From the NCBI RefSeq assembly GCF_003334765.1, contig NZ_QOWT01000004.1: 64,000 bases of DNA. One strand, given 5' to 3'. The stretch is from Escherichia coli. Lineage in GTDB: Bacteria > Pseudomonadota > Gammaproteobacteria > Enterobacterales > Enterobacteriaceae. Position 1 is the stretch's first letter. The number at the start of each line of letters is the position of its first letter. Positions 50,993 to 51,196 of this stretch are shown piece after piece. The notes under the pieces are model-generated. The model saw only the letters and a list, made by a program, of their open reading frames with translations, was not told where the DNA came from and ran no database searches. The translations under genes and the position numbers were made by a program.

Positions 50993-51043
50993 AATTCCTC
51001 CTTGCGGTCACAAATCTCCGTCGCCTGTACACGACCCAATAAT

Positions 51044-51077
51044 ACTTTGTACAATATACGCTAAAATTGTACAAAGT
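51044..51077. promoter_or_regulatory. Perfect 12-bp inverted repeat (actttgtacaat-N10-attgtacaaagt) between bluF and bluR
   Basis: Seen directly in sequence; lies about 50-85 bp upstream of the bluR start codon; candidate operator or bluF terminator. Confidence 0.5.
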
Positions 51078-51196
51078 ATAAATAAGATTTCAGCTAAATT
51101 GGATGAAACATTATTTTTAATGTGGATTAAATTTAAACGTAACGTATTCATTTTCACGATGATTTACTGAAATCATGTGAAAGAATGTGCTGAAAA

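Follow-up and report, generated by a model that had tools for sequence, protein, structure and literature searches.

A conserved TGTACA dyad on the bluR core promoter of Escherichia coli is a candidate BluR/MlrA-family operator

The bluR–bluF spacer and its dyad

The stretch of Escherichia coli DNA analysed here (64 kb, referred to below as the window) contains icd, iraM, ycgX, bluR and bluF, followed by the divergent ycgZ, ymgA, ymgB/ariR and ymgC, and the element in question is a perfect inverted repeat with TGTACA cores in the 204 bp spacer between bluF and bluR, a spacer that is 100% identical to that of E. coli K-12 MG1655. A first reading made from the letters alone (the sequence-only reading) had assigned bluR, bluF and ycgZ correctly, and had left the repeat with three possible roles: an autoregulatory operator of BluR, a site for another regulator, or the stem of a bluF terminator. 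The repeat lies on the bluR promoter itself and accompanies BluR-like genes across genera, and we propose that it is an operator for BluR or a close relative. The features concerned are as follows.

51042–51079, no strand: the perfect dyad ATACTTTGTACAAT-N10-ATTGTACAAAGTAT, proposed BluR/MlrA-family operator
50261–50992, minus strand: bluR (ycgE), with a GTG start at 50992 and MerR-type helix-turn-helix (HTH), MlrA_helical and MlrA_C domains in its product, the proposed binder of the dyad
51197–52408, minus strand: bluF
52722–52958, plus strand: ycgZ, divergent from bluF and bluR
52647–52665, plus strand: the known BluR operator of the ycgZ promoter, TGTACA (52647–52652)-N7-cGTACA (52660–52665), the reference site
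51026–51031, no strand: a third TGTACA, at +15 to +20 of the bluR mRNA leader

The arms of the dyad, at 51042–51055 and 51066–51079, were found by an inverted-repeat search to be 14 nt long and 100% complementary, with a 10-nt gap between them; the sequence-only reading had the sequence right at 51044–51077 and ended the arms too early, at 12 nt. Each arm contains the self-complementary octamer TTGTACAA, so that the dyad doubles as a direct repeat of period 20 bp, and the two TGTACA cores lie 20 bp apart centre to centre, with a core spacing of N14 and a core-to-core extent of 26 bp. The arrangement is non-random: the window has a single match to the pattern TTGTACAA-N6..20-TTGTACAA, which 100 dinucleotide-preserving shuffles failed to produce even once, and TGTACA-N4..20-TGTACA occurs twice, both times at the dyad region, against 0.04 expected. 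Lone TGTACA hexamers are not enriched across the window (12 found, 11.9 expected). When one mismatch is allowed, just two other pairs turn up in the window, the established ycgZ operator and a TGTACA-N16-TGCACA at 3527–3554, at the 3′ end of an open reading frame (2806–3540), and we have discarded the latter as falling within chance expectation (2.3 ± 1.5 for the window). The third TGTACA is present where it had been noted, and may be an auxiliary site, but is not conserved, being TGTAGA in the E. coli strains H16 and H19.

Position of the dyad on the bluR promoter

Primer extension in K-12 has placed the 5′ end of the bluR transcript 54 nt ahead of the start codon (Tschowri, Lindenberg and Hengge 2012, PMC3509220), and the same work gives separate start sites for bluR, bluF and ycgZ and reports that bluF and bluR are not an operon (PMC3509220). 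Because the bluR–bluF spacer is identical to that of K-12, the published start applies at position 51046 of the window; the transfer of coordinates is validated at ycgZ, where the same counting rule recovers the published overlap of the BluR half-sites with the −35 element and the promoter spacer. The elements of the bluR promoter are then placed as follows.

51046, minus strand: bluR transcription start (primer extension in K-12, coordinates transferred), counted from the GTG at 50992
51058–51053, minus strand: −10 hexamer TATATT from a promoter scan, exactly at −12 to −7 of the mapped start, its last three bases in the proximal arm of the dyad and the rest in the gap
51082–51077, minus strand: candidate −35 hexamer TTTATA, a consensus match only, with an 18-bp spacer and overlapping the outer end of the distal arm
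51068–51073, no strand: promoter-distal TGTACA core, at −27 to −22
51048–51053, no strand: promoter-proximal TGTACA core, at −7 to −2, overlapping the last −10 base and stopping 2 nt short of the start

With the start at 51046 and the −10 hexamer at −12 to −7, the dyad occupies −33 to +5 of the bluR promoter, its proximal arm covers part of the −10 element and the start, and bluR transcripts from the mapped promoter include only its final 5 nt. This placement on the promoter, together with the 14-nt arms, adds to what the sequence-only reading had described. A different bluR promoter, TTTAAA-16-AATAAT (51137–51110), has been guessed from the consensus alone (PMC3946193), and we have set it aside in favor of the start determined by primer extension.

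The location of a dyad within a promoter, and its pairing with a regulator of the MerR family, are shared with the classical MerR operator-promoters such as those of merT, zntA, copA and soxS. MerR represses its own divergent promoter, and autoregulation through a promoter-embedded dyad is the norm in the family. However, the classical dyads are ~18–22 bp long and centred in a spacer of 19–20 bp, the layout on which MerR proteins activate, whereas the bluR dyad is 38 bp long and the bluR spacer 18 bp, and the midpoint of the dyad (51060.5) falls 7 bp downstream of that of the spacer (51067.5); in BluR, moreover, MlrA_helical and MlrA_C domains replace a C-terminus that binds a metal or drug. 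These differences bear on the sign of the effect. BluR or a relative could bind the dyad and activate, either by MerR-style remodelling of the promoter or in a class II-type manner where the right half-site is at −35, and it is true that many MerR-family proteins activate from a dyad within the promoter, that MlrA is an activator, and that the right-hand core coincides in most genera with the −35 element of a predicted promoter (see below), a position that activators can occupy. We nevertheless regard activation as very unlikely, since only repression has been attributed to BluR, even where it displaces an activator, at the csgD promoter; since an occupied core at −7 to −2 would be incompatible with the open complex in E. 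coli; and since both the spacer length and the offset of the dyad are wrong for remodelling.

Conservation of the dyad in E. coli and across genera

Among 5,426 complete E. coli genomes, 4,973 contain the dyad region at 95–100% identity. Both arms are invariant in five of the most divergent E. coli alleles, in which the gap has one substitution, and the remaining differences between alleles lie mostly near the bluF end of the spacer. We note also that icd (47259–48509) is followed within ~100 bp by iraM (48612–48935, minus strand) and then by ycgX, with no prophage-sized insert in 48510–50260; as the e14 element sits at icd in K-12 MG1655, this strain is presumably e14-free in spite of its K-12-identical bluR–bluF spacer.

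A search with BluR identified homologues in many Enterobacterales, and a profile of 16 of them listed at least 80 loci, with one genome per species. L001–L072 are BluR-like (54–83% identity) and L073–L080 are true MlrA orthologues (70–78% identical to E. coli MlrA); E. coli and other Escherichia species are not among the 80 listed loci, and the window is counted as the 73rd BluR-like locus. When these genomes with bluR orthologues are searched for the motif, as the sequence-only reading had suggested, a TGTACA pair with no more than one mismatch in total is found upstream of the start codon in 70 of the 73 BluR-like loci listed, representing about 20 genera, and its downstream member ends 44–64 nt (mostly 53–60 nt) before that codon. 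The spacing of the cores among the listed loci is N13 in 43, N7 in 12, N12 in 6, N11 in 4 and N14 in 3, the last being E. coli and two Cedecea-like loci; N14 lies outside the experimentally characterised spacings, N7 and N12. The three exceptions are two Pseudescherichia-type loci and an Atlantibacter locus with a two-mismatch version. The dyad is missing in Pseudescherichia vulneris and 'Escherichia sp. ESNIH1' (L013, L017), where the end of bluF is only 65 nt from bluR, and co-transcription of the two genes is possible.

Alignment of 37 dereplicated N13 loci reveals that the information is concentrated in the two TTGTACA cores, the flanks contributing little apart from a downstream −10-like element, and the consensus of this class is aagTTGTACA-N13-TGTACAa. 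Elsewhere in the ~575 kb of listed loci there are 105 motif matches, 92 of which are in the bluF–ycgZ intergenic region, which holds the known operator, with the remainder scattered. Symmetry of the outer flanks beyond TTGTACAA is weak across genera (146 matches, compared with 128 ± 7 in shuffles), and the perfect 14-nt arms thus appear to be a feature of the E. coli lineage and not a rule of the family. The Enterobacter hormaechei/asburiae/cloacae group and Kosakonia depart in another way, with a TATACA/TGTACA-N7-TGTACA element ~53 nt before the bluR start codon that replaces the N13 dyad; bluR loci with this ycgZ-type N7 spacing are L036, L037, L039, L040, L044, L046–L048, L050, L052, L054 and L061.

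A second conserved property is the relationship of the pair to promoter elements. A TAnnnT hexamer is located exactly 17 nt after the right-hand TTGTAC in 44 of the 70 loci, against a background of 2.1% per position, which in most genera puts the right core on the −35 of a predicted sigma-70 promoter. This TAnnnT element is absent from E. coli, Citrobacter and Pseudocitrobacter, and the mapped E. coli promoter lies ~20 bp further upstream. The putative operator overlaps a core promoter element in both layouts, the −10 and +1 in E. coli and the −35 in most genera. In place of the third TGTACA of E. coli, other genera often have a further (G)TACA some 10 bp beyond the right-hand core (for example, L008, L018 and L034).

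The element thus has GTACA/TGTACA half-sites and palindromic cores around an A/T-rich spacer, and lies in a control region where it is conserved together with a regulator gene; the predicted family-wide operator consensus is TTGTACA-N13-TGTACAA, with N7 at ycgZ. It is extremely improbable that the dyad is a chance palindrome with no specific function in AT-rich, H-NS-bound intergenic DNA. The spacer is certainly AT-rich, a genomic SELEX (systematic evolution of ligands by exponential enrichment; gSELEX) study with the RpoD holoenzyme reports a peak and H-NS binding there (PMC3946193), and TGTACA taken singly is no more abundant in the window than expected, but chance accounts neither for the failure of every shuffle to produce the dyad, nor for a pair kept at a fixed distance from the gene in so many of the listed loci, nor for its invariance in the divergent E. 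coli alleles sampled.

Comparison with known BluR, MlrA and CarH sites

The site most directly comparable is the ycgZ operator, where BluR protects TGTAC...GTACA and mutations in the motif abolish both binding and repression, as determined by footprinting, electrophoretic mobility shift assay and lacZ fusions (PMC3509220). The TGTAC-N9-GTACA that had been pointed out on the ycgZ side is indeed present at 52647–52665, and matches this published footprint; in other genera the ycgZ operator is TTGTACA-N7-TGTACA, ~65 nt before the ATG. The ycgZ operator and the bluR dyad have the same GTACA/TGTACA cores, overlap a core promoter, belong to the same gene cluster and are presumably bound by the same protein. 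They differ in that the cores are 13 bp apart at ycgZ but 20 bp apart at bluR (19 bp in most genera), in that the promoter at ycgZ is a sigma-S one, overlapped at its −35 and spacer, whereas that at bluR is a sigma-70 one, overlapped at its spacer, −10 and +1, and in that the ycgZ site is experimentally validated whereas the bluR dyad is a predicted operator.

Two further arrangements of these hexamers were observed in the cluster. The ycgZ promoters of most genera (L007–L067) have three hexamers, TTGTACA-N7-TGTACA-N13-TTGTATAACTT, of which E. coli has only the first two; the second and third have the N13 spacing of the bluR dyad, and the third overlaps a sigma-S-like −10 element. An additional perfect pair is present in Klebsiella oxytoca and K. 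spallanzanii (L043, L053), namely ATGTACAATTTTTGCAG(A/T)AAAATTTTGTACA, with a spacing of N18 at about +1820 to +1852 from the bluR start, which is ~200 nt upstream of a ymgC-like gene downstream of bluR and may be a further target site.

BluR also binds the MlrA site of csgD, AAAGTTGTACA-N12-TGCACAATTTT (PMC3509220), the sequence of which we have verified in K-12. As described by Ogasawara et al. 2010 (cited in PMC3509220 and PMC9662190), this site resembles the bluR dyad in being a 33-bp palindrome with TTGTACA cores, T/A-rich outer flanks and an A/T-rich centre, and the N13-class consensus is nearly the same element. The csgD site is far upstream and mediates activation, whereas the bluR dyad is on the core promoter; the csgD site is also N12 and imperfect (TGCACA), whereas the bluR dyad is N14 with arms that are perfect over 14 nt.

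The nearest relatives of the BluR DNA-binding domain with solved structures are CarH/LitR (3whp, 5c8d; E about 6e-14). On the promoter, each CarH DNA-binding domain, held by a C-terminal oligomer, recognises one 11-bp unit of the form nAnnTnnACAn (PMC8156234). The common half-site of the bluR dyads, AAGTTGTACAA, fits this pattern, with the E. coli half-site having a C instead of an A at pattern position 2, and the regulatory logic is similar in that these are repressors released in the light, the CarA anti-repressor CarS being the counterpart of the BluR anti-repressor BluF. However, a B12-dependent tetramer binds the CarH units, which are arranged as direct repeats in tandem, whereas the units of the dyad are inverted and 19–20 bp apart and BluR has no B12 domain; the tandem 11-bp repeats of a CarH-type operator are not found at bluR.

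Association of the dyad with the regulator gene

The complete cassette of bluF–bluR and ycgZ–ymgB is present in 45 of the listed loci, with a handful of others truncated by the end of a contig. The bluF match is split into two tblastn segments in Enterobacter cloacae DSM 26481, Leclercia adecarboxylata NCTC13032 and Cedecea neteri (L048, L064, L069), which suggests a frameshift or a pseudogene. About 22 Pantoea, Erwinia and Mixta loci contain a BluR-like gene without bluF or ycgZ, and these have kept the dyad. The upstream gene is divergent in both of the Erwiniaceae loci examined (L015, L049), coding for an XRE-HTH/cupin regulator, and is followed by a GNAT gene. No such TGTACA pair was found upstream of the eight true mlrA loci (L073–L080) or of E. 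coli mlrA. By this distribution the dyad goes with the regulator gene rather than with bluF.

The Pantoea and Mixta BluR-like genes adjoin convergent yehW/yehX at about +1630 to +1635, as true mlrA loci do, and are therefore positional orthologues of mlrA. This is the arrangement in L012, L014–L016, L019–L023, L028, L030, L035, L045, L056 and L057, with the gene at ~4001–4729 and a TGTACA-N13-TGTACA dyad. The genes themselves are closer to BluR (62–66%) than to E. coli MlrA (53–56%). A duplication giving rise to mlrA and bluR has been proposed by Tschowri et al., and the comparative data refine its history, as the Erwiniaceae gene at the mlrA locus more closely resembles BluR and carries the dyad, while the true mlrA genes are without it. 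We tentatively suggest, on the basis of unrooted similarity and synteny, that the TGTACA dyad may have been the ancestral self-operator of the MlrA/BluR clade, kept by bluR and lost by mlrA after duplication in the Enterobacteriaceae, and that in E. coli it may close a negative feedback on the light/cold response.

Two side features of the Erwiniaceae loci are worth recording. A conserved palindrome, TCTCATATATGAGA, is located ~25 nt upstream of the dyad and ~100–110 nt before the start codon (L012, L015, L019–L023, L049, L063), and may be the operator of the divergent XRE-HTH/cupin regulator in Pantoea and Erwinia. In Erwinia persicina (L049, 4743–7156) the BluR-like gene is followed by co-oriented NTF2-like, short-chain dehydrogenase and FAD amine-oxidase-like genes, an arrangement that recalls the light and photo-oxidative-stress clusters controlled by LitR/CarH-type regulators in other bacteria.

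The same loci bear on the question of whether MlrA, alone or with BluR, binds the dyad in E. coli, which would link the module for curli and cyclic di-GMP (MlrA-DgcM-PdeR) to the level of BluR. The recognition helix of MlrA is identical to that of BluR, both in the MlrA sequence and in the invariant columns of the homologue profile; the csgD site is more like the bluR dyad (N14) than the ycgZ operator (N7) is; the reverse cross-binding, of BluR to csgD, has been demonstrated (PMC3509220); and the dyad-bearing Pantoea and Mixta genes occupy the position of mlrA. Even so, we consider cross-regulation of this kind unlikely. The dyad tracks the BluR-like genes, and its absence upstream of true mlrA ties it to the gene that it precedes; at bluR the spacing in the Enterobacter clade is N7, the BluR type; and csgD is the only MlrA target site that we found described in the accessible literature. 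Another regulator had been among the roles first considered for the repeat, and from these comparisons BluR is favored, with MlrA, given the identical helix and similar site, as a possible co-binder. A gSELEX peak of SrsR (YgfI) has also been assigned to the bluR/bluF spacer (PMC9181523). The exact SrsR box, GCAGGTTTTGC, is at 51474–51484 (minus strand), inside the 3′ part of bluF and ~400 bp upstream of the dyad, and it does not explain the dyad.

A possible role in the bluF transcript

A different type of explanation is that read-through transcripts of bluF end in a hairpin formed by the dyad, which would serve either as the bluF terminator or as a stabilising stem-loop. If transcribed, it would form a 14-bp stem with a 10-nt loop (−14.8 kcal/mol, z = −4.2); because bluF and bluR are not an operon, something must stop bluF transcripts within the 204-bp spacer; and the perfect 14-nt arms of E. 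coli exceed those of most genera, which could mean an added, lineage-specific constraint. However, the stem has only 2 G-C pairs in 14 and its tail, UAUUGGGU, only 4 U in 8, so that it does not have the form of an intrinsic terminator, and a terminator scan of 50800–52800 returned no sites. There is likewise no Rfam match over the dyad at E ≤ 1, the sole hit being a sub-threshold snoRNA model inside the bluR coding region. The dyad is retained in the ~22 loci without bluF, including the two in which the upstream gene was seen to be divergent, and what is conserved is the TGTACA sequence, not pairing with variable sequence. Moreover, the bluF stop codon is immediately followed by another hairpin, at 51145–51180.

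Conservation in loci without a co-oriented upstream gene, together with the presence of only the last 5 nt of the dyad in bluR transcripts, leads us to reject termination as its main role, and the proposal that it is simply the bluF terminator stem fails also on the AU-rich stem, the weak U tail and the empty scan. An RNA-level function as a whole seems to us quite improbable, although a secondary contribution of this sort may be made in E. coli. The hairpin at 51145–51180 (minus strand) is UUUCACAUGAUUU-loop-AAAUCAUCGUGAAA, with a predicted −11 kcal/mol and no U tract; changes in E. coli alleles keep its pairing via G-U, and it may mark the 3′ end of bluF.

A proposed model for negative autoregulation of bluR

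The explanation that we favor, with a probability of roughly two in three, takes the dyad to be a BluR/MlrA-family operator that acts in cis on the core promoter of bluR and subjects the gene to negative autoregulation. The parsimonious choice of binder is BluR, because TGTACA is its validated motif, because it also binds the long-spaced MlrA site of csgD, because the site co-occurs with BluR-like genes, and because the Enterobacter clade uses the validated N7 spacing. Among the roles offered by the sequence-only reading, the autoregulatory operator is thus the one preferred, given the overlap with the mapped core promoter, the ycgZ-type cores and their conservation in the listed loci. We infer the binding of BluR, repression as its effect, and the feedback logic from these sequence relationships. 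A BluR oligomer would bind both TGTACA cores of the dyad, and as these cover −27 to −22 and −7 to −2, it would block RNA polymerase at the −10 element and start site and so repress bluR. BluF removes BluR from DNA in blue light and cold, and the signal that derepresses ycgZ-ymgABC would thereby also derepress bluR, such that BluR would be replenished and the balance of BluR to BluF restored.

Several considerations weigh against this interpretation. The E. coli spacing, N14 (20 bp), differs from that of the only validated BluR operator (N7, 13 bp) and is closer to that of the MlrA site (N12), and a difference of 6–7 bp is about half a helical turn, such that one rigid dimer would be unable to read both; a flexible presentation of independent DNA-binding domains, by analogy with CarH, is a plausible explanation for the two spacings. 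MlrA, with its identical recognition helix, could be the binder or a co-binder. The AT-rich and H-NS-flagged nature of the spacer is a further point, and if the TTTAAA-16-AATAAT promoter is used, the dyad would be in the 5′ leader. Finally, we found in the accessible literature no mention of autoregulation at bluR, of a site for BluR there, or of BluR binding surveyed across the genome; a self-operator has apparently not been described before for bluR.

There is nothing surprising in kind about the proposal, as autoregulation of repressors is very common in bacteria, including those of the MerR family. Its interest lies in the pathway, which is the model for the control of biofilm functions by blue light and cold in E. 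coli, and whose published BluF-BluR-Ymg-Rcs wiring has a single BluR target, the ycgZ operon. A bluR self-operator, if true, would add a feedback loop setting the BluR:BluF ratio and hence the sensitivity and duration of the response; the ycgZ-ymgAB/Rcs response would then be adaptive rather than switch-like, and MlrA might gain a direct handle on the level of BluR.

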